Assembly: GCA_963845925.1 (NCBI GenBank)
Contig: CAWJUA010000013.1
Location: forward strand, 33,507 to 97,506
Source: an uncultured Chloroflexia bacterium
GTDB taxonomy: Bacteria; Chloroflexota; Limnocylindria; Limnocylindrales; CSP1-4
DNA: 64,000 bases
Direction: 5' to 3'
Shown here: one piece after another, positions 8,295 through 40,205 of the stretch
Numbering within the stretch: position 1 is the stretch's first letter
How the letters are laid out: the number at the start of each line of letters is the position of its first letter
The notes under the pieces: model-generated
What the model was told of the DNA's origin: nothing
The model's database searches: none
The model's input: the letters and a program-made list of their open reading frames with translations, nothing else
Program-made: the position numbers and the translations under genes

Positions 8295-9391
8295 ATCAGC
8301 CCAAGCGTTGCGAGCTGGGCCGTGAGCTGTTCGACGGCCCGTTCCCAGGTGAACTCGATCCCCACCATCGACCGACCGCGCGGACCGACTCCCCTGGCCT
8401 CGTCGAATCGCAGCAGCGCCGCGGCCAGGCTCGTTGCGTCAGGCGTCGCCAGGACCGCGGCGTCGTAGCGTTGCAGCACCGGTGCCACGTGGAGCACGCT
8501 CGAGACGATGCTCGGGATCCCCAGCGAGAGGACCTCGAGCAGGGCCACGCTGTGGCTCTCCCAGCGCGAAGGCAGCACGAAGCCCTCAGCGTCGAGCAGG
8601 AAGCGCCGTTTCTCCATGCCGCTGATCGGGCCCCCGATGCGGACCGATCTGTAGAGGTCCGGCCGGCGGGCGAGCTGCTCTCGAAGGCTCGCGAGTCCGC
8701 CGCGGTAGTCATAGCCCCGGAGCATGATCGTCGGCCGCCGATCGGGCGGAATGTGGCCGAGCGCGTCCAGCAGCACGTCGAGGCCTTTGTGCGTGGGATC
8801 GTACCGACCAACCCAGGCGAGGTAGCCGCCGCCACCGCGCCACTCCTGATCCGGGATCTCGACGCCCGTCGGTGCCACGACGGTCTTCGCCTGCGGAGCG
8901 AGGGCCATGACCGACGGCGACTCGGATTGGAAGAACAGGTGCACCGCCGCCGCTCGACTGAGCACCCGTCGCTCGACGGCCTCGCGAACCGCGAGCGGTG
9001 GCCGCAGGTAGCGGCGCCAGGCCGGCTCGTACACGCCGTGCGGCATCACCACGTACGGCACGCCGGCCCGCGACGCGCTCTCGGCGGCGATGGTGTTGCT
9101 TGACACCCAGCCCTCGTGGAGGACGAGGATGTCGCCCGGCTGCAGATGGCGCGCGAGGTCGACCGGGTGCCGGGTGAGTCTGCCCCGGCCGCGATGGGCG
9201 ATGCGCTGATGCTTGACGGTGGCACCCCGCGAGCTGACGAACGGCTCGGCGGCCTGTCGGCTGGCGCGACCGTCGGCGTGGAGCACGACCGACTCGAACC
9301 CGGCCGCGGCGAGGGCCGTGGCCCAGCCCCAGAGGGCCACGGTGACGCCTGAGTCACCCATCGCGTCCGGGTAGTAGTGGACGAAACGCAT
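8291..9391 (-). CDS. Glycosyltransferase family 4
   Basis: VGRYDPTHKGLD and PSRWESHSVALLE; ATG 9391 overlaps the upstream stop. Confidence 0.88.
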   Translation of the reverse strand: MRFVHYYPDAMGDSGVTVALWGWATALAAAGFESVVLHADGRASRQAAEPFVSSRGATVKHQRIAHRGRGRLTRHPVDLARHLQPGDILVLHEGWVSSNTIAAESASRAGVPYVVMPHGVYEPAWRRYLRPPLAVREAVERRVLSRAAAVHLFFQSESPSVMALAPQAKTVVAPTGVEIPDQEWRGGGGYLAWVGRYDPTHKGLDVLLDALGHIPPDRRPTIMLRGYDYRGGLASLREQLARRPDLYRSVRIGGPISGMEKRRFLLDAEGFVLPSRWESHSVALLEVLSLGIPSIVSSVLHVAPVLQRYDAAVLATPDATSLAAALLRFDEARGVGPRGRSMVGIEFTWERAVEQLTAQLATLGLM

Positions 9392-25557: not shown

Positions 25558-31102
<5,545 letters not shown>

Positions 31103-31208
31103 GGCTTCTCCCCTGCTTCGACCGTGGAACCGGCACCCTCAGTCATCGAGCCGGCGTTCGCTCTCCGAGGTCGGAGGCTGAGCTCCGCGAAGCCATCCGC
31201 CCGAGGAT

Positions 31209-31871
31209 TCATCGCTTGACCGCCTCCTCGATGGATGACGAGCCGCGCGACATGACGACGGCTCCGGTTCGCACCAGCTCCTTGATCCCGTAGCCCCGGA
31301 CGAGCCCGACGAATGTGTCGACGTCGGCCTCCGGCCCGGTCACCTCGGCGACGATCGACTCGTCGGCGACGTCGAGGACCCGCCCCTTCGAGAGCTCGAC
31401 GAGCTTGAGGACCTCGCCTCGCGTCGACTCGGTCGCCCGGATCTTCACGAGCGCCAGCTCCTGGCCGATCGTCGCCTCGGACGTGACGTCCTGGACCTTG
31501 AGGACGTCGATCAGCCGGTAGAGCTGCTTCGCCGCCTGCTCGACCGCGACGTCGTCGCCATGGAGCGTGATCGTCATCCGGCTGACGTCGGGCTGGTCGG
31601 TCCGGCTGACCGCGAGCGAGTCGATGTTGAAGTTGCGGGCTCGCATCAGCGACGACACCCGGTTCAGGACGCCCGGCTTGTCGAGGACGATCGCGATCAG
31701 CGTGTGACGACGCGTCTCGCCGCCACCCGGCAGCGCTCGCGGCGGCGGGTTGACGTGGCCCGTGTGGGCGGGCGGTGTGATGCCGGGGACGGCACCGGAT
31801 GCGGCGCTGGGAGAGGCGCCGGCTCCGGTGCCGCCCGGCACCCTGCCATTCGAACTCGGGTCGGACGTCAC
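31209..31871 (-). CDS. ilvN: Acetolactate synthase small subunit
   Basis: DKPGVLNRV, NIDSL, QLYRLIDV, ELALVK and ELVRTG; GTG 31871 is coupled to the ilvB stop. Confidence 0.93.
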   Translation of the reverse strand: MTSDPSSNGRVPGGTGAGASPSAASGAVPGITPPAHTGHVNPPPRALPGGGETRRHTLIAIVLDKPGVLNRVSSLMRARNFNIDSLAVSRTDQPDVSRMTITLHGDDVAVEQAAKQLYRLIDVLKVQDVTSEATIGQELALVKIRATESTRGEVLKLVELSKGRVLDVADESIVAEVTGPEADVDTFVGLVRGYGIKELVRTGAVVMSRGSSSIEEAVKR

Positions 31872-33745
31872 TCGTCCGCCCCGTCCCACTTCTCGATCAG
31901 GTCGGACAGGCCCTTGCCGGCCGGCATCATCGGGAAGATGTTCTGTTCCTCGGCGATCTCGAACCAGATGAGCGCCGGGCCGTCGACCGCCTGGGCGGCC
32001 CGGATCGCATCGTCGACCTCATCGGGCGCCGTGGCCCGGAACGCCGGGATGCCGTACGCGTCGGCCAGCTTGGCGAAGTCCGGGCCGGGCAGATGGGCGG
32101 AGTGATAGTTCCCGCCGTAGATGATCTCCTGCCACTGCCGGATCATCCCGAGCTTCTTGTTGTCGAGCAGGGCGATCTTCACCGGGATCCGGTCGGCCAC
32201 CAGGGTCATCAGCTCCTGCGACGTCATCTGGAAGCCGCCGTCGCCGGTGATCGCCCACGTCTCGCGGTCGGGCCGGCCGAGGGCCGCGCCCATCGCCGCC
32301 GGGACGCTGAAGCCCATCGTGCCGAGGCCGCCGGAGCTGACGTGCGAGTTCGGCTGGCGGAAGCCGGCGTAGCGGGCGAGCCACATCTGGTTCTGGCCGA
32401 CGTCGGCGACGTACGTGGCCGCGTGGTCCGTCAGCTCGCCGATCCGGCTGACGACGTAGTCGGCCGAGAGGAGGCCGTCCCGCCACGCCCCCGAGCCGTG
32501 CCACGACGAGCCCTCGGACTCGCGCCGCCACTCGGCGAGCTCCGCGAAGTAGTCGGCCCGGGTCGCCGGCTCGACGGCCGCGACCATCGGCGTCAGCGCC
32601 CGCAGGACGCGGCCAGCGTCGCCGACGATCGGGACCTCGACCGCGACGTTCTTGCCGATCTCCGCGGGGTCGATGTCGACGTGGACGATCCGGGCGTACG
32701 GGGCGTACGTCCGGACGTTGCCGGTGACCCGGTCGTCGAAGCGCATCCCGATCGCGAACAGCAGGTCGGCCGACTGGATCGCCCGGTTGACGTGCTTCCA
32801 GCCGTGCATCCCCATGAAGCCGTAGCTCAGCGGGTGGGTCTCGTCGATGACGCCGACACCGAGCAGCGTGTGGGCGACCGGGATCTGGGTCTTCTCGGCG
32901 AACGCGACGAGGTCGTCCCAGGCCTCGGCGTGGAGGACGCCGTGGCCGGCGAGAATCACGGGCCGCTTCGCGTTCGCGATCTCGGCGGCGGCGAGCTTGA
33001 GCTGGCGGCCGTTCGGCTCGACGTTCGGGCGGAAGCCCGGCAGGCCCGCGATGACCTCATCCTCGGTCGGGTGGCCGGCGGTCGTCTCCTGCTGGAGGGC
33101 ATCCTTCGTGATGTCGATGTGGACCGGGCCGGGCCGGCCGGATCGGGCGATGTGGAACGCCTCGGCGATGACCCGCGGCAGCTCGTCGGCGTCGCGGACG
33201 AGGTAGTTGTGCTTCGTCATCGGCAGCGTGATGCCGTTGATGTCGATCTCCTGGAACGCGTCCTTGCCGATGAGCGCGCCCGGGACGTTGCCGGTGATCG
33301 CGACGATCGGGACCGAGTCGAGGAGGGCGGTGCCGATGCCGGTGACGAGGTTCGTGGCGCCCGGGCCGGACGTCCCCATACAGACGCCGACGCGGCCGGT
33401 GACGCGGGCGTAGCCGTCGGCGGCGTGGGCGCCGCCCTGCTCGTGGCGGACGAGGATGTGGCGCAGCTCGGGGTAGTCGCCGAGGACGTCGTAAAGCGGC
33501 AGGATCACGCCGCCGGGGTAGCTGAAGAAGACGTCGACGCCCTGGTGGAGGAGCGCCTCGCAGACGACGTCGGCGCCGATGCGCGTCCGCCGCCGCGGCC
33601 GCGAGTCGTCGAGCATCGACTTGCGGGCCTGTTCGACGGCCGCCGCGCTCGAGGTGCCGTCGCTGGGGACATGGCTCCGGCGCGCGTCAGGGCTCGGCGC
33701 CGTCGGACTCGGCGGCTTCGCCGATGGACCCTTCGTCATCGTCAT
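31868..33745 (-). CDS. ilvB: Acetolactate synthase large subunit
   Basis: YPGG, RHEQG, TSGPGATN, RFDDRV, TPP motif GDGGF..N and MIRQWQ. Confidence 0.96.
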   Translation of the reverse strand: MTMTKGPSAKPPSPTAPSPDARRSHVPSDGTSSAAAVEQARKSMLDDSRPRRRTRIGADVVCEALLHQGVDVFFSYPGGVILPLYDVLGDYPELRHILVRHEQGGAHAADGYARVTGRVGVCMGTSGPGATNLVTGIGTALLDSVPIVAITGNVPGALIGKDAFQEIDINGITLPMTKHNYLVRDADELPRVIAEAFHIARSGRPGPVHIDITKDALQQETTAGHPTEDEVIAGLPGFRPNVEPNGRQLKLAAAEIANAKRPVILAGHGVLHAEAWDDLVAFAEKTQIPVAHTLLGVGVIDETHPLSYGFMGMHGWKHVNRAIQSADLLFAIGMRFDDRVTGNVRTYAPYARIVHVDIDPAEIGKNVAVEVPIVGDAGRVLRALTPMVAAVEPATRADYFAELAEWRRESEGSSWHGSGAWRDGLLSADYVVSRIGELTDHAATYVADVGQNQMWLARYAGFRQPNSHVSSGGLGTMGFSVPAAMGAALGRPDRETWAITGDGGFQMTSQELMTLVADRIPVKIALLDNKKLGMIRQWQEIIYGGNYHSAHLPGPDFAKLADAYGIPAFRATAPDEVDDAIRAAQAVDGPALIWFEIAEEQNIFPMMPAGKGLSDLIEKWDGADE

Positions 33746-33770
33746 CGCAGTCTCCCGATCCCGCTTCAAG

Positions 33771-34190: not shown

Positions 34191-34228
34191 AAACGCATGA
34201 GACCGCCGGTTGCCCGGCGGTCTCATGC
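34191..34228 (-). terminator. Terminator hairpin after the two small peptide genes
   Basis: Perfect 15-bp stem (34195-34209 / 34214-34228), GCAA loop on the minus strand, then GTTT. Confidence 0.8.
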
Positions 34229-34252: not shown

Positions 34253-34354
34253 TTACTTCCAGCGCTGACCGGCCTCGATGACGTAAGCCGAGCTTGCGAG
34301 CGCCGAGAGGACGAGGAGGACCCGGAAGGCCTGAGCCTTGAACATGCGGGTCAT
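34253..34354 (-). CDS. Small peptide 2 (33 aa) MTRMFKAQAFRVLLVLSALASSAYVIEAGQRWK
   Basis: Translated by hand; starts 4 nt after the peptide 1 stop; shares LAS.A....AG.RW. with peptide 1. Confidence 0.75.
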   Translation of the reverse strand: MTRMFKAQAFRVLLVLSALASSAYVIEAGQRWK

Positions 34355-34358
34355 CGCG

Positions 34359-34448
34359 TCAGTCCCAGCGCATCCCAGCGCCGACGGTGAGGGCCATTGA
34401 TGCCAGGAGCATCACTGCCCACGTGAAGCGAGCCAGGTACTTCTTCAC
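34359..34448 (-). CDS. Small peptide 1 (29 aa) MKKYLARFTWAVMLLASMALTVGAGMRWD
   Basis: AAGGAG RBS before GTG 34448; basic N-terminus, hydrophobic core and AG-x-RW tail. Confidence 0.8.
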   Translation of the reverse strand: MKKYLARFTWAVMLLASMALTVGAGMRWD

Positions 34449-34483
34449 GATGTGACTCCTTCGAGTCTGCCTGACGTCGTTCC

Positions 34484-34564
34484 CTCGGCGGCCGGGCGGT
34501 CTTCCGTGACGGGAAGATCCCTGGCTTTGCGTCCCCGTCTCACGACGGGTTTGCCCTGGACGAG
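34484..34564 (-). ncRNA. c-di-GMP-I (GEMM) riboswitch aptamer
   Basis: Minus strand CTCGTCCAGGGCAAACCCGTCGTGAGACGGGGACGCAAAGCCAGGGATCTTCCCGTCACGGAAGACCGCCCGGCCGCCGAG: GGGCAAACC, GNRA loop (GTGA), GGACGCAAAGCC, terminal CCGA and CTCG/CGAG P1. Confidence 0.9.
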
Positions 34565-34668
34565 CTCGCGGCGGAGGAGGTAGTCCTCGTCGTGAACGTT
34601 GCGAGTACGGCTGCCGATCCACTATGGGCCATCGGTACCAGTCGGACACGACTTGCGAGTCAGTGCGT

Positions 34669-35226
34669 TCAGTCATCACCCGTCGGGCCGACCACGCCGG
34701 AGCGCGCGCCGCGACGCATCGTCGTGACGATCACGACCACGACGCCGATCGCCAGGATCGCGTCCCCGACGCTGAAGATGTTGTTGAACGGCAGCCACGT
34801 CGGCAGCGCGAAGATGTCGGTCAGCGGCTCCAGCATCGGATGGGCCAGCACGGCACTGTTTGAGTAGATCACGGGGTCTGCCCTGCCGAGTGCGGCCATC
34901 GCGCCGGGCGATGCCGGCATGAAGCCGCCGTTGGCGAGGATCGCGGCGAGGTTGCAGGCGGCCCCGAGCGCGACCAGCGGGATGCCGGGCACGTCGAGGT
35001 TTCGAAGCACGGCGATCACGACCATGAGCGTGCTCCCGACGTACAGGATCGGCCCGAGGCTACCCACCCGCTCCGCGATCGCGTCCTGGAAGAGGACGAC
35101 CTGCACGAGAAAGCCGGCGAACACGAGCGGCCACCAGCGGAACTTGATCTCGCCGAGGCGGGATGGCCTGCCGCCCAGCAGCAGGCCGATGACCAGGCCG
35201 ATCGCGACGGCGTAGAGGATGAACAT
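34669..35226 (-). CDS. DUF5317-like membrane protein
   Basis: Hydrophobic protein with GG..RL, N..AI.ANGG.MP, L.DIF and FSVGD motifs; GGAG RBS. Confidence 0.8.
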   Translation of the reverse strand: MFILYAVAIGLVIGLLLGGRPSRLGEIKFRWWPLVFAGFLVQVVLFQDAIAERVGSLGPILYVGSTLMVVIAVLRNLDVPGIPLVALGAACNLAAILANGGFMPASPGAMAALGRADPVIYSNSAVLAHPMLEPLTDIFALPTWLPFNNIFSVGDAILAIGVVVVIVTTMRRGARSGVVGPTGDD

Positions 35227-35248
35227 CAACTGCTCCGGGACGAGGCGC

Positions 35249-37918
35249 TCAGGCGCTGCGAAGCTTGACCCGCCGCCGGGTCAGCGCCGCCGGCTCGACG
35301 GGTGGCTCGGCCCCTGAGGCTGCGGGCAGCGGGCCAAACGTCTTCGCGGTGAATGTTGCACCGTCGACCGGCCTGGCGAACAGGTATCCCTGGCCGAACT
35401 CGCAGCCCATCTCCCGCAGCCGATCGAGCTGCCCGGCATCCTCGACGCCCTCGGCGACGATCCGCAGGCCGAGCGTCCGGCCGAGGGCGACGATCGAGTG
35501 GGCGAACGCCCAATCGTCGCTCCCGCCGTCGGCGGCGCCGATGAACTCGCGGGCGATCTTGAGGATGTCGACCTGGAACCGGCGAAGGTAGCCCAGCGAG
35601 GAGTAGCCGGTTCCGAAGTCGTCGATCGCGATCCGGATGCCGAGCTGTCGCAGGGCCTGGAGGCGCGCGATCGTCGTATGCGTGTCGTGGAACATCGCCG
35701 TCTCGGTGAGCTCGAGCACCAGCGAGGTCGCCGGGAAGCCGGTCTCGTCGAGGATCCGCCCGATGTCGTCGACGAAGTCCGCGTCCTGGAGCTGGGCGGC
35801 CGACAGGTTGATCGTCAGGACGAGCGGCTCCGGCCGAGGCCATTGCCGCTGCCAGGTGGCCACCTCGCGGCACGCCTCCAGCAGCACCCAGCGGCCGAGG
35901 CCGAGGATCGCCCCGCTCTCTTCGGCGAGGCGGATGAACTCGTCTGGACCGACGATGCCGCGGGTGGGGTGCCGCCAGCGGACGAGCGCCTCGACGCCGT
36001 ACAGTCCGCCGGTCGCGAGGCCGATGATCGGCTGGTAGTACACGGCCAGCTCCCCGCGGACGATGCCGCGGGTCAGCTCGGACGAGAGCGCGTGCCGTTC
36101 GATGATCGCCGCATGCATCGTCGGCTCGAAGACGGCGTACTGGCTCTTGCCCAGGGCTTTGGCCCGGTACATCGCCACGTCCGCGTTGCGGAGCAGGTCG
36201 TCGGCCCGCTCGCGTGGGTCACGCGCGGCGGCGAGCCCGATGCTCGCGCTGATCGAGACCTCCTGGCCCTCGATCGGGAGCGGGACCTTCAGTGCCTCGA
36301 GGAGACGCTGGCACACCGACAGGGACCGGCTCAGATCGGGGACGTCGTCCAGCAGGATGGCGAACTCGTCGCCCCCGAGGCGGGCCGCGACGTCGCCGGC
36401 CCGGACGCAGCTCCGGACGCGGTCGGCAACCGCGACGAGCAGATGGTCGCCGGCGACGTGGCCCATGCTGTCGTTCACGACCTTGAAGTCGTCGAGGTCG
36501 ACGAAGAGGACCACCGGCAGCAGGTCCGGCGTGGGCAGCACGAGGCGCGCGTTGACCTGCTCGGTGAAGAGGTTCCGGTTGCCGAGGCCGGTGAGCGGGT
36601 CGTGGTAGGCCTGGTGGCGCAGCTCCTCCTTGAGCCGCGACAGCTCGGCAAGCGACTGTTCCAGCTGGCCGTTCTCGAGCGCGGTGGCGGCCTGGTTGGC
36701 GAGCGTCTCGAGGAGCCGTAGATCCTCGTCGGTAAACGACGTGGCTTCGGTCAAGCGGTTGGCGATCTGGATCGAGCCGATCGTGCCGGCTTCTCCGCGG
36801 AGTGGCGCCATCATCGCCTGACGGACGCCGTCCGCATGCGGGTCGCCGACTGCGGGAACGTGAAAGAACGCGTGCGGCTCCGACTCGACTCGCATGCGGA
36901 TCGGGTCGTCCGGCGCGAGCCTGACCGGCACCATCGTGGTCGGCGGCTCGGCCTCGGCGGTCCGCGTGAGCAACGCGTCGCCCTCGGCCGAGCGTGGGTA
37001 AAGCACGACCTCTGCCCGTTCAGCGCGGAACATGGTTCGGGCGTGTTCAAGCAACGCCACGATCGCCGAATCCAGCTCGGGCGAGTGCTGCAGGATGCGG
37101 CCGGACTGATAGAGGAACTCGAGACGCTGGCCCTTCTCGCGCTCGGAGAGGTAGGCGCGGTAGGCGAGGAAGACCGTGCCGAGCGGAACGACGAGGAGCC
37201 AGAGCAGGCGGGGCTCGACCCACAGGATCGAGACCGCCAGCAGCGCCAGGCTCGTATTCGCGACAGCCACGAGCGTGCCGAACTGGATCATCTCCGGCAG
37301 CTTCTGGAACTGCGGGGCGCCACCGGACAGCGAGATCGCGGTGGCGATGGCAAAGGCGCTGACGACGGTCGCTGCGAGCGTTCCGGCGAACGCCGCGAGC
37401 CAGTCGCCGCTCGTCGGCTGGCCGGCCGGCGAAGCGAGGAGGTGGAAGACCGTCAGGGACACCGCGGCCGAGATCGCGAAATTGCTGAGGTTGAAGGCGA
37501 ACTTCAACGGAGGCTGGCGGAAGTAGATCAGGGCCGAGCCAGACCCGAGCAGCATTGCCAGGAGGTACTGGTCCGGCGACAGCAGGAAGAGACCGAGAAC
37601 GGCCGGGAACTCGCTCAGGGAGAAGGAGTGCTTCTCCCTCCGGAAATGGACGTCGACGACCTTGAGCTCGGCGAGGAAGAAGCCGATCGCGAGGACGGGC
37701 CAGGGAATGTTGAAGGGCTGGGCCGGCGCCGGCAGTCCCCGGAGCTGCGTCAGGTAGAGCAGCAGGGCGCATGTCGCGATCCCCGCGCTGAAGCTCCAGA
37801 CCCGCACCGTCACCGGGATCGCCGCGAGGGCACGCCGAATCGGGACGCCGGCGGCGGCGACCGGCCAGTTGCGCGAACCGGTTGGCTCGACCCGTTGGGT
37901 TTTGACCCCTCGGGACAT
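35249..37918 (-). CDS. Membrane diguanylate cyclase/phosphodiesterase (multi-TM, GAF, GGDEF, EAL)
   Basis: GGAGG RBS and ATG 37918; about 6-7 hydrophobic segments; GAF (FTDEDLRLLETLANQ); DLDDFK, RAGD I-site, GGDEF, EAL, DDFGTGYSS, AEGVE and QGY. Confidence 0.93.
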   Translation of the reverse strand: MSRGVKTQRVEPTGSRNWPVAAAGVPIRRALAAIPVTVRVWSFSAGIATCALLLYLTQLRGLPAPAQPFNIPWPVLAIGFFLAELKVVDVHFRREKHSFSLSEFPAVLGLFLLSPDQYLLAMLLGSGSALIYFRQPPLKFAFNLSNFAISAAVSLTVFHLLASPAGQPTSGDWLAAFAGTLAATVVSAFAIATAISLSGGAPQFQKLPEMIQFGTLVAVANTSLALLAVSILWVEPRLLWLLVVPLGTVFLAYRAYLSEREKGQRLEFLYQSGRILQHSPELDSAIVALLEHARTMFRAERAEVVLYPRSAEGDALLTRTAEAEPPTTMVPVRLAPDDPIRMRVESEPHAFFHVPAVGDPHADGVRQAMMAPLRGEAGTIGSIQIANRLTEATSFTDEDLRLLETLANQAATALENGQLEQSLAELSRLKEELRHQAYHDPLTGLGNRNLFTEQVNARLVLPTPDLLPVVLFVDLDDFKVVNDSMGHVAGDHLLVAVADRVRSCVRAGDVAARLGGDEFAILLDDVPDLSRSLSVCQRLLEALKVPLPIEGQEVSISASIGLAAARDPRERADDLLRNADVAMYRAKALGKSQYAVFEPTMHAAIIERHALSSELTRGIVRGELAVYYQPIIGLATGGLYGVEALVRWRHPTRGIVGPDEFIRLAEESGAILGLGRWVLLEACREVATWQRQWPRPEPLVLTINLSAAQLQDADFVDDIGRILDETGFPATSLVLELTETAMFHDTHTTIARLQALRQLGIRIAIDDFGTGYSSLGYLRRFQVDILKIAREFIGAADGGSDDWAFAHSIVALGRTLGLRIVAEGVEDAGQLDRLREMGCEFGQGYLFARPVDGATFTAKTFGPLPAASGAEPPVEPAALTRRRVKLRSA

Positions 37919-38141
37919 CAGACCTCCAGAGTTTCGTCTCCGTCCGGGCATTCTGTGGCCGCTTCGGCACATCTGGCCGTTGAACGAAGGTACGGGTCGG
38001 GGCATGACGAAGGTCACCGGACCGCATTCCTCCTGACCAATCCGCACACCGGATATCGCGGATGGGGATCGGACGACGTCGGGATGAACGCGCCCCTGTG
38101 CTAGCCTGAAAGGCCCCATTTCACGCAGGTTTCGAGTCGTC

Positions 38142-39581
38142 ATGAGCCAGCCGCGAACGATCGTCGAGAAGATCTGGGACGACCACGTCGTCGTCCAGGA
38201 GCCGGGTGCCCCGGCGGTCCTCGCGGTCGACCTCCACCTCGTCCACGAGGTCACGTCGCCGCAGGCGTTCTCGGGGCTTCGCGCCCGCGGCCTGCGGGTC
38301 CGCCATCCGGACCGGACCGTCGCCACCGCGGATCACTCGACGCCGACCCACTCGCGCTCCCTGCCAATGGCCGACCCGATGGCGGCGGCCCAGGTCGACC
38401 AGCTGACGCGCAACTGCGAGGAGTTCGGCGTCCCGCTCCATGGCCTCGGCTCGCCGAGCCAGGGGATCGTCCACGTCATCGGCCCCCAGCTGGGCCTGAC
38501 CCAGCCCGGGATGACGATCGTCTGCGGCGACTCCCACACCGCGACCCATGGCGCGTTCGGGGCGCTCGCGTTCGGGATCGGGACGAGCGAGGTCGAGATG
38601 GTCCTCGCGACGCAGACGCTGCTCCAGCGCCAGCCGAAGACCTACGAGGTCCGCGTCGACGGCCGTCTCTCGCCCGGCGTCAGCGCGAAGGACATCATCC
38701 TCGCCCTGATCGCCCGGATCGGGATCGGCGGCGGGACCGGCCACGTGTTCGAGTACACCGGCGACGCGATCCGCGCCCTGACGATGGAACAGCGGATGAC
38801 GATCTGCAACATGAGCATCGAGGGCGGCGCGCGGGCCGGCCTGATCGCCCCGGACGACACGACGTTCGACTACGTTCACGGCCGGGCGCATGCCCCGCAG
38901 GGCGCAGCCTGGGATGCCGCCGTGGAGCGCTGGCGTTCGCTCCCCACCGACGAGGGCGCGAGCTACGACCGGTCGATCACGATCGACGCCGCCGCCCTCG
39001 AGCCGATGGTCACGTACGGCACGAACCCGGGCATGGGCATCCCGATCACGTCGCTCGTCCCGTCGCCTGATGCCCAGCCCGATCCGTCCGCCCGCCGGGC
39101 CCTCGAGCGGGCCCTCGAGTACATGGACCTCCTTCCCGGCCAGCCGATCCTCGGCCAGAAGGTCGACGTGGTCTTCGTCGGCTCGTGCACGAACGGCCGG
39201 ATCAGCGACCTGCGGCTCGCGGCGTCGGTGCTGAAGGACCGCAAGGTCGCCGACGGCGTCCGGGTGATGATCGTCCCGGGCTCCGACGAGGTGAAGCGCG
39301 AGGCCGAGCGCGAGGGACTCCACGAGGTCTTCCGGGCGGCCGGCGCCGAGTGGCGCGAGTCGGGCTGCTCGATGTGCATCGCGATGAACGGCGACCAGCT
39401 GGCGCCCGGCCAGTACGCGATCTCGACGTCGAATCGCAACTTCGAGGGCCGCCAGGGCAAGGGCGGCCGGACGTTCCTCGCCTCGCCGCTGACCGCCGCC
39501 GCGTCGGCGATCGCGGGCGTCGTCGCCGACCCGCGCAGGCTCGCCGGGATCGAGGCGATCGCCCCGGTCGGTGGGCGGTAG
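38142..39581 (+). CDS. leuC: 3-isopropylmalate dehydratase large subunit
   Basis: [24 protein letters not shown] and [12 protein letters not shown]. Confidence 0.97.
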
Positions 39582-39584
39582 CCG

Positions 39585-40205
39585 ATGGCCGAGCCGTTCG
39601 AAACGTTCACGAGCCGCGTCATCGCGCTGCCCGCAGAGAACGTCGACACGGATCAGATCGTCCCCGCCCGCTACCTGAAGGTCACCGACAAGGCCGGCCT
39701 CGCCGAGGCGCTCTTCCGCGACTGGCGCTTCGAGGAGGACGGATCGTTGCGCGAGCCGCGGTTCGTGCTCGACCAGCCGGCGATGGCCGGGCGCCGGATC
39801 CTGCTCGCGGGCGACAACTTCGGCGCCGGATCGTCGCGCGAGCACGCCCCGTGGGCCCTGACCTCGTGGGGGATCCGGGCGATCCTCTCGACGTCGTTCG
39901 CCGACATCTTCCGCAACAACGCCCTGAAGAACGGCCTGCTGCCGATCGTCGTCGAGGCGGACGAGCACAGCCACCTCTTCGAGCTGGTCGAGGCGAATCC
40001 GGCCACGGAGCTGACGGTCGACCTCGAGGCCCAGGTCGTCCACCTCCCGGGCGACGAGGACCTGCCGTTCGACGTCGACCCGTTCGCCCGGGTGATGCTC
40101 CTCGCCGGCACCGACGAGATGGGCTATCTGCTGGGCAAGACGTCCGACATCGACCGCTGGGAGGCGGCCCACCCTGCCCGCGTCGACACGCTGGTCGCCG
40201 GCTGA
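39585..40205 (+). CDS. leuD: 3-isopropylmalate dehydratase small subunit
   Basis: NVDTDQI, NFGAGSSREHA and FADIFRNN. Confidence 0.96.
   Translation: MAEPFETFTSRVIALPAENVDTDQIVPARYLKVTDKAGLAEALFRDWRFEEDGSLREPRFVLDQPAMAGRRILLAGDNFGAGSSREHAPWALTSWGIRAILSTSFADIFRNNALKNGLLPIVVEADEHSHLFELVEANPATELTVDLEAQVVHLPGDEDLPFDVDPFARVMLLAGTDEMGYLLGKTSDIDRWEAAHPARVDTLVAG

Follow-up and report, generated by a model that had tools for sequence, protein, structure and literature searches.

In a stretch of 64,000 nucleotides from an uncultured Chloroflexia bacterium (GenBank assembly GCA_963845925.1, contig CAWJUA010000013.1, positions 33,507 to 97,506 of the forward strand; hereafter the window), a gene for a small membrane protein of the Pfam family DUF5317 lies next to two micropeptide genes and a gene for a membrane enzyme of cyclic di-GMP (c-di-GMP). 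That DUF5317, micropeptide and membrane c-di-GMP enzyme form one module is very probable and, in our view, close to shown. As for the function of DUF5317 in this module, we tentatively favor an outward-facing aspartyl peptidase that would cleave the co-encoded micropeptide by a dyad of aspartates, D138 and D156, resembling that of LspA, the lipoprotein signal peptidase II (MEROPS family A8, PF01252; structures 5DIR, 6RYO, 6RYP and 9EMZ). We arrive at this proposal because of a local likeness of DUF5317 to LspA and a lipobox-like Gly-Ala in the peptide. The genes of the module in the window are, in the order of transcription:

35249..38326, minus strand: membrane GAF-GGDEF-EAL protein, first gene of the unit (Pfam EAL 1.5e-74, GGDEF 1.4e-42, GAF_3 2e-10)
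34669..35226, minus strand: DUF5317 protein, 185 amino acids (aa) from ATG (Pfam PF17248)
34359..34448, minus strand: micropeptide pepA, 29 aa, GTG start, GAAGGAG 7 nt upstream
34253..34354, minus strand: micropeptide pepB, 33 aa, begins 4 nt past the pepA stop, tail IEAGQRWK

A conserved micropeptide beside DUF5317

PepA has a basic N-terminus, 15 uncharged residues, a Gly-Ala and the tail GMRWD, and it belongs to a family of micropeptides that are linked to DUF5317. A tblastn search with pepA found similar small open reading frames (ORFs) adjoining DUF5317 in distant loci. A hidden Markov model (HMM) of the peptides was seeded from seven ORFs picked by a regular expression and iterated three times on DUF5317 loci; the E-values of the peptides included in it are circular. 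Its first round added four non-seed loci at E ≤0.0074. Within 1.5 kb the HMM detected a peptide at 17 of 32 DUF5317 loci, versus 0 of 31 LspA control loci (0 of 30 without the one control locus that comes from genome G038). Extending the flanks of 12 loci to about 5-13 kb revealed the peptide upstream of an intervening HD-GYP (or MFS) gene in 8 more (L097-L103 and L105, the extended forms of L004, L007, L009, L013, L014, L029, L023 and L027), while L104 was marginal at E 1.3 and L094, L106 and L107 were without a peptide. In all, a micropeptide adjoins DUF5317 in 25 of 32 Chloroflexota loci.

Plausible starts with a Shine-Dalgarno sequence give micropeptides of 28-47 aa. One Ala is common to all 25 HMM-aligned peptides, and none of them has a Cys at that position. 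The residue before this invariant Ala is Gly in 21 of the 25, Asp in two, Thr in one and Ala in one. The distance from the last Lys or Arg to the Gly-Ala position is exactly 15 residues in 21 of 25 peptides and 19, starting QHIQ, in the remaining four. The sequence-only reading of this DNA had described the neighboring peptides as devoid of a lipobox Cys, and rightly so: the peptides are present and no Cys follows the Gly. In PepB the invariant Ala is kept, but it is preceded by Glu instead of Gly. Behind a riboswitch of Rfam family RF03167, which is described below, a pepA-type ORF is followed by a pepB-type ORF in the window and in L071, L072, L076 and L081, and a single peptide is found in L078; another pepB-type ORF lies downstream of DUF5317 in L028/L106. 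The pepB-type ORFs of L071, L072 and L028 conserve the tail Glu-Ala-Gly-x-Arg-Trp, and pepA and pepB are therefore distinct conserved paralogues. In a further locus, L098 (G077:C28), two tandem identical micropeptide tails, MKWATLKMKVIYGLMVIASLVMAAGADSRWA, are encoded at about 8445-8700 on the minus strand, upstream of an HD-GYP-DUF5317 pair.

The neighbors of DUF5317 were surveyed with crude ORF calls at 30 loci, plus or minus 1.5 kb. There, 13 of the 30 loci have an HD-GYP (HD_5) or GGDEF neighbor, a BTAD regulator stands beside DUF5317 in 11, and an MFS_3 exporter is adjacent or fused to it in four (fused in L029; separate in L023, L024 and L027). The c-di-GMP enzymes adjoining DUF5317 carry N-terminal multi-helix membrane domains, and that of L013 matches the sensor domain MASE9 at E 4.9e-6. 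In the window, the stop codon of the GAF-GGDEF-EAL gene lies 22 nt before the DUF5317 ATG; its true start is probably downstream of 38326. We take this protein to act in the synthesis or breakdown of c-di-GMP. It matches MASE9 (PF20972) with 13.4 bits and E 0.072, under the 24.3-bit cut-off. The membrane parts of this protein and of the HD-GYP protein adjoining DUF5317 in genome G115 are weakly alike (BLASTP E 0.001, 28% over 94 aa).

The DUF5317 protein and its local likeness to LspA

Both the extent of the gene, 34669-35226, and its assignment to DUF5317 had been read from the sequence, and both are confirmed here. The ORF list gives 34669..35229 on the minus strand, a TTG start and 186 aa; the next codon is an ATG at 35224-35226, and GGAG stands 6 nt 5' of it, as read from the sequence. 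Since this ATG has a GGAG on its 5' side and the nearest homologues are 185 aa long, 34669-35226 is likely the gene. Residue numbers in this text are those of the 186-aa TTG translation, and numbering from the ATG is lower by one. The match to Pfam DUF5317 covers the complete profile (1-151 of 151) with 91.2 bits and E 8.2e-26, well past the gathering score of 25 bits; none of the NCBIfam models was matched by the protein. A word-indexed search found 1,377 relatives at E ≤0.001, and PF17248 is present in 120 of the 120 relatives listed, whose names point to Chloroflexota/Limnocylindria. An exhaustive search returned 2,816 cluster representatives at E ≤0.001. Among 201 Chloroflexota genomes searched, 64 have DUF5317. 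The family is named nowhere in the literature searched, and a search of the ESM Atlas that excluded the DUF5317 clusters returned nothing usable.

Conservation was judged from an alignment of 69 DUF5317 sequences (A1) and from a wider count over 270 homologues. P105, D138 and G155 are invariant in A1, and Q43, N77, N93, N100, G101, G102, M104, S153 and D156 are nearly so. In the wider count, D138 (within LTDIF) is Asp in 241 of 241 homologues covering the position and D156 (within FSVGD) in 233 of 234. The motif around D156 is SxGD, with Ser at the first position in 234 of 235 homologues, and for this reason we rejected the idea that DUF5317 is a GxGD protease (A22/A24). The AlphaFold2 model built from A1 is confident (pLDDT 92.5, pTM 0.86) and has five predicted helices, 3-17, 33-46, 49-75, 83-99 and 154-172, the last two being joined by a 50-residue loop with short strands. 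DSSP assigns a beta bridge at 138, strands at 140-141 and 151-152, and makes D156 the third residue of helix 154-172. Lys and Arg are concentrated in the C-terminal tail and in the loop 18-32, a distribution from which the positive-inside rule predicts an outside N-terminus and an inside C-terminus; the long loop that carries D138 and the beginning of the last helix, where D156 sits, would accordingly face outward.

The same genome has a canonical LspA, encoded between ileS and rluD and matching PDB entries at E 3.6e-19. LspA was found in 60 of 61 Chloroflexota genomes searched, a tally in which the unpublished genome G038 is counted. Because the genome of the window has its own LspA, a replacement of LspA by DUF5317 was rejected. 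In S. aureus LspA the catalytic dyad is Asp118/Asp136, and the conserved residues include Val116, Phe132, Asn133 and Ala135, according to the part of PMC6952399 that was available; this conservation fits the same two Asp motifs. In P. aeruginosa LspA the PDB alignments identify D124 as the aspartate of VVDF and D143 as that of FNLAD. The spacing of 18 is common to the dyad of S. aureus LspA, to D117/D135 of the genome's own LspA and to D138/D156 of DUF5317. An hhalign comparison of A1 with an alignment of 29 Chloroflexota LspA sequences (A2) aligned 71 columns and set D138 on D117 (VVDF) and D156 on D135 (FNVAD). The sequence-only reading had taken the aspartates of LTDIF and FSVGD for equivalents of the LspA catalytic pair, which agrees with hhalign, with the PDB alignments and with the available part of PMC6952399.

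In numbers, the hhalign comparison reached a probability of 11%, a P-value of 0.0027 and a score of 28.0, compared with 16.3 and 17.9 for reversed profiles. With a gap-stripped A2 the real score was 24.8, and 100 single-column shuffles gave a mean of 13.0 and a maximum of 19.9. An LspA HMM made from A2 repeatedly matched the region of the FSxGD helix, with 10 of 270 DUF5317 sequences at 8 bits or more (top 13.1), and reversed decoys reached at most 3.4 bits. A Pfam scan of the 69 A1 members (24,736 models, E ≤10), which did not depend on the choice of LspA in the sequence-only reading, had Peptidase_A8 as the commonest secondary family, in 4 of 69 members with a best E of 0.026; every other secondary family occurred in at most 2 of 69. 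The setting of the aspartates is similar as well. DSSP of the LspA AlphaFold model gives a helix at 89-112, a strand at 115-123 that contains D117, and a helix at 133-150, in which D135 comes third. Both models thus place the first Asp at a beta strand or bridge and the second at the third position of the last helix. Judged by sequence and model, D138 and D156 show the arrangement of the A8 dyad, in which VxD lies on a strand, FNxAD opens the last helix and 18-19 residues separate the two aspartates. The profile evidence is modest, weak but specific, and the resemblance of DUF5317 to LspA, as read from profiles and models, holds locally only.

Riboswitch, RNA-library contigs and the second DUF5317 copy

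Two further elements of the unit were identified in the window:

34483..34564, minus strand: predicted riboswitch aptamer of the c-di-GMP-I-GGC type (Rfam RF03167), in the 220-nt spacer between DUF5317 and pepA
34196..34227, minus strand: perfect hairpin of 14 bp with a 4-nt loop, 26 nt past the pepB stop, read from the sequence

The RF03167 match scores 67.2 bits, compared with a gathering score of 59, at E 8.2e-15, and spans the full model (1-80 of 80). The available parts of the literature searched contain no text on the ligand of the c-di-GMP-I-GGC variant, which is listed there among the c-di-GMP classes. The whole 220-nt spacer folds no better than its shuffles (z -0.2). Between the aptamer and the pepA start, at 34449-34482 on the minus strand, GACUC and GAGUC are predicted to pair on either side of the Shine-Dalgarno sequence GAAGGAG, and this pairing could be a translational expression platform. 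The hairpin at 34196-34227 likely marks the end of the transcription unit, with a weak U tract; a consensus terminator scan did not list it, and a promoter scan found nothing. Contigs from RNA libraries of soil metatranscriptomes, in which carry-over of DNA is possible, match parts of the unit: 34260-34355 and 34326-34497 (both X15) and 34408-34540 (X16) with 0 differences, 34409-34625 with 2 differences (X18), and 34944-35190, inside DUF5317, with 1 difference (X15). The segment 34570-34905 is without cover by such contigs in X15-X17, a gap to which we attach no weight. Judging from translations, the module is flanked by branched-chain amino acid genes at 27252-33769 and 38142-40205 of the window: the minus strand carries ORFs that resemble ilvB, ilvN, ilvC and leuA, the plus strand ORFs that resemble leuC and leuD.

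Of 61 genomes of the class, 27 have an RF03167 match, which exceeds the cut-off in 21. In G115 (L095) the order is HD-GYP, DUF5317, riboswitch, pepA, pepB, which is the window order with a different c-di-GMP enzyme, and G106 (L096) has DUF5317, riboswitch and peptide genes in the window order. At gathering thresholds Rfam found tRNAs only in the other 31 short DUF5317 loci, and the riboswitch therefore belongs to this class rather than to the whole family. In G187 none was found between DUF5317 and the pepB-type ORF. Other copies of RF03167 precede larger, secreted-looking proteins. The genome itself holds two more, at G000:C13:23167-23255 (L091, just outside the window) and G000:C11:2208-2282. 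In L091 and several relatives the element precedes larger proteins that start with M-x-F/Y-W-D-G-x-x-W and have one N-terminal membrane helix; from their sequences, these may be a secreted family under c-di-GMP control.

The second DUF5317 copy of the genome is fused to MFS_3, which recalls peptidase-exporter fusions. Its locus, L094 (G000:C19:88000-101000), contains:

L094 8100-10000, minus strand: whole locus, with riboswitch, small ORFs, HD-GYP and DUF5317-MFS_3 in this order
L094 9916-9997, minus strand: predicted c-di-GMP-II riboswitch (RF01786, 57.1 bits)
L094 9718-9798, minus strand: 26-aa ORF with the tail AGGASLKGF
L094 9525-9644, minus strand: 39-aa ORF

At L094 8985-9615 / L002 2128-3348 two separate frames encode the membrane domain (an ORF of 163 aa that ends at L094 9124) and the HD-GYP domain (an ORF of 252 aa), and in the relative G088 (L029) a single 470-aa ORF holds both. 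Either a frameshift or faulty assembly of this genome, which is 73% complete, accounts for the split.

Possible functions of DUF5317 and comparison with known systems

In the mechanism that we tentatively favor, the micropeptide would insert in the membrane with its N-terminus inside. Between D156 and R173, at the inner end of the last DUF5317 helix, there are 16 residues, and because the 15-residue spacing of the peptide resembles this number, a peptide helix running parallel would place the Gly-Ala, 15 residues above the basic residue at the inner face, at about the depth of D156. A cut at the Gly-Ala would free an outer tail of 4-11 residues, often with a Trp, and leave a short helix in the membrane. 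One of the cleavage products might then influence the neighboring GGDEF-EAL or HD-GYP enzyme through its membrane sensor domain, and with the peptide genes of the window behind a c-di-GMP-type riboswitch a feedback loop would be closed. In its full form, the proposal says that DUF5317 is a new family of outward-facing aspartyl membrane peptidases with the LspA dyad arrangement in a different fold, by distant descent or by convergence, that it matures a micropeptide of ruler length at the invariant Gly-Ala, that the product is the long-sought signal, in the membrane or at the surface, for MASE9-type c-di-GMP enzymes, and that the riboswitch closes the feedback loop in this lineage. We regard this complete chain as rather doubtful, more so than peptidase activity taken by itself.

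A number of results weigh against peptidase activity. The A8 family model (PF01252, gathering score 25 bits) did not match the window protein at E ≤10. Searching the PDB sequences with the DUF5317 profile returned no LspA and two matches at chance level (E 0.69 and 1.8). A check of the AlphaFold model with Foldseek against LspA had been suggested by the sequence-only reading; the DUF5317 model is confident, but LspA is not among the 19 rows returned from the PDB, the best of which has E 3.9. Nor is LspA among the best 50 rows of VIA-align against 48,161 chains (Z 5.0-6.6), where the top match at Z 6.6 is a designed helical barrel, within the background for helical models, or in a second look limited to the 19 Foldseek chains (top Z 4.5). 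In structure, the model best matches common helical bundles, with Z values in the background range. It has five helices and no beta-cradle signature, compared with four helices and a beta cradle in LspA, and only about 70 residues of the C-terminal part align. The available part of PMC6952399 names Asp21, Lys25, Asn52, Gly54, Gly102, Asn106, Asp109 and Arg110 as further conserved residues of S. aureus LspA; Asp21, Lys25, Asn52, Gly54, Asp109 and Arg110 have no aligned counterpart in DUF5317. The proposed equivalence of ANGG with the GN..DR of LspA fails, as hhalign sets N124 under the LspA Asn and leaves Asp-Arg unmatched; N124, or N100 in the earlier register, may stand in place of Asn106 with no Asp-Arg after it. 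With the gap-stripped A2, 100 four-column block shuffles had a mean of 13.9, a standard deviation of 3.1 and a maximum of 27.6, so that at least one exceeded the real 24.8. The peptide counts and the regular spacing lean towards the model, because the HMM was iterated on DUF5317 loci and disfavors insertions, and the loci surveyed for synteny are from Chloroflexota only. The fixed spacing and the conserved tail of the peptide would fit a stable subunit equally well. A complex prediction for DUF5317 (A1) and pepA (from an alignment of its own, A3) scored 0.29 and 0.18, compared with a mark of 0.32, and speaks neither for binding nor against it.

As judged from sequence, DUF5317 is thus not a member of peptidase family A8. 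Of the earlier proposal that it is an LspA-type aspartic protease, the conserved Asp pair, its local setting, the predicted outward side and the Gly-Ala peptides stand; A8 membership does not, and the fold searches described above listed no LspA. Could it still be a true but very divergent LspA paralogue that processes lipoproteins? The likeness in motifs is all that speaks for this, and the idea is close to refuted: a canonical LspA is already in the genome, LspA occurs in 60 of 61 Chloroflexota genomes compared with 64 of 201 for DUF5317, the partner peptides have Ala and not Cys after the Gly position in 25 of 25, and the number of helices and the missing beta-cradle signature do not agree with it.

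A non-catalytic partner role is nearly as likely as a peptidase. DUF5317 would then form a stable membrane complex with the uncleaved micropeptide, or act alone, and modulate the sensor domain of the adjacent c-di-GMP enzyme, while its aspartates, together with the conserved Asn and Gln, would serve to bind a cation or a small ligand or to keep the outer loop in position. Such a complex accounts for the synteny as well as a peptidase does. The fixed length from the basic residue to the Gly-Ala and the interfacial Trp fit a helix packed in register, the fold searches retrieve no known protease fold, and many polar residues of the helices are conserved (Q43, N77, N93, N100). In the available part of 10.1101/2021.11.05.467447, ligand binding by MASE9 is argued to occur within the membrane, which also suits this possibility. 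What it leaves unexplained are the LspA-dyad spacing, motif and secondary-structure setting of the aspartates, the recurrent secondary Peptidase_A8 match in Pfam and the fusion of DUF5317 to an exporter. This fusion, seen in the second locus of the genome and in L029, together with the adjacent MFS_3 genes of L023, L024 and L027, would be accommodated if DUF5317 were an accessory of transport or export, a channel-like or loading module that hands the micropeptide or a small molecule to MFS_3, with the aspartates lining a polar path. Of the 79 DUF5317 matches from the search of Chloroflexota genomes, about 20 lie, in this class, within open frames of more than 600 aa, and the conserved polar residues inside the helices agree with such a role. 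We consider it improbable, given that 26 of 30 loci, including that of the window, are without an MFS neighbor within 1.5 kb, that a five-helix protein of 185 residues is small for a transporter and that no transporter match rose above background in the fold searches.

If DUF5317 is a peptidase, it would enlarge the small set of known membrane-embedded aspartyl proteases by a new family and would offer a concrete substrate, a cleavage site and a mutant pair for study. It would also provide candidate inputs for orphan membrane sensor domains of c-di-GMP enzymes, and be an example of micropeptide genes under the control of a riboswitch. Even if it has no peptidase activity, micropeptide, DUF5317 and c-di-GMP enzyme make up a conserved signalling module that is still undescribed.

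Several known systems bear comparison with this module. The GxGD aspartyl intramembrane proteases, presenilin/SPP (A22) and prepilin peptidase (A24), have a GxGD in a helix and a second intramembrane Asp. DUF5317 shares with them a Gly-Asp at the start of a transmembrane helix, in the form S-x-G-D; in contrast, its D138 is on a strand of the outer loop and not inside a helix, and there is no YD-type motif. Small membrane proteins are known to modulate sensor kinases, as MgrB does with PhoQ. There too, the gene of a membrane signalling protein is accompanied by that of a single-pass peptide of some 30 residues, but in the loci described here a third conserved partner with invariant acidic residues, DUF5317, always accompanies the peptide. 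In Firmicutes, peptide pheromones derive from lipoprotein signal peptides cut by LspA and Eep, and Rgg-SHP, ComR-ComS and the RRNPP regulators belong to this circle of systems. A short hydrophobic precursor encoded beside processing or sensing genes is common to both, and here as well a membrane protease could free a C-terminal peptide. The BTAD regulators found beside 11 of 30 DUF5317 loci carry TPR-type repeats, comparable to the pheromone systems in this respect. The differences are that the putative output of the DUF5317 module is c-di-GMP turnover and a riboswitch rather than a cytoplasmic peptide-binding regulator, and that the unit, in which secretion and sensing are putative, lacks an oligopeptide permease.

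MASE9 sensors resemble the c-di-GMP enzymes adjoining DUF5317 in their multi-helix N-terminal membrane domains, while the available part of 10.1101/2021.11.05.467447 names no partner genes, ligand or link to DUF5317 or a micropeptide. A last comparison is with LspA itself. Both proteins have a strand motif hydrophobic-x-D-F and, where the last helix begins, an F-x-x-(A/G)-D, at an Asp spacing of 18, and in both the aspartates are predicted near the outer membrane surface. The candidate substrate of DUF5317 likewise begins with a basic stretch, which is followed by a hydrophobic core and, just ahead of the conserved position, by small residues (x-Gly). Unlike LspA with its four helices, DUF5317 has five and a 50-residue outer loop between the last two, and its partner peptide, of 28-47 residues with a tail of 4-11, presents an Ala in place of the diacylglyceryl-Cys.

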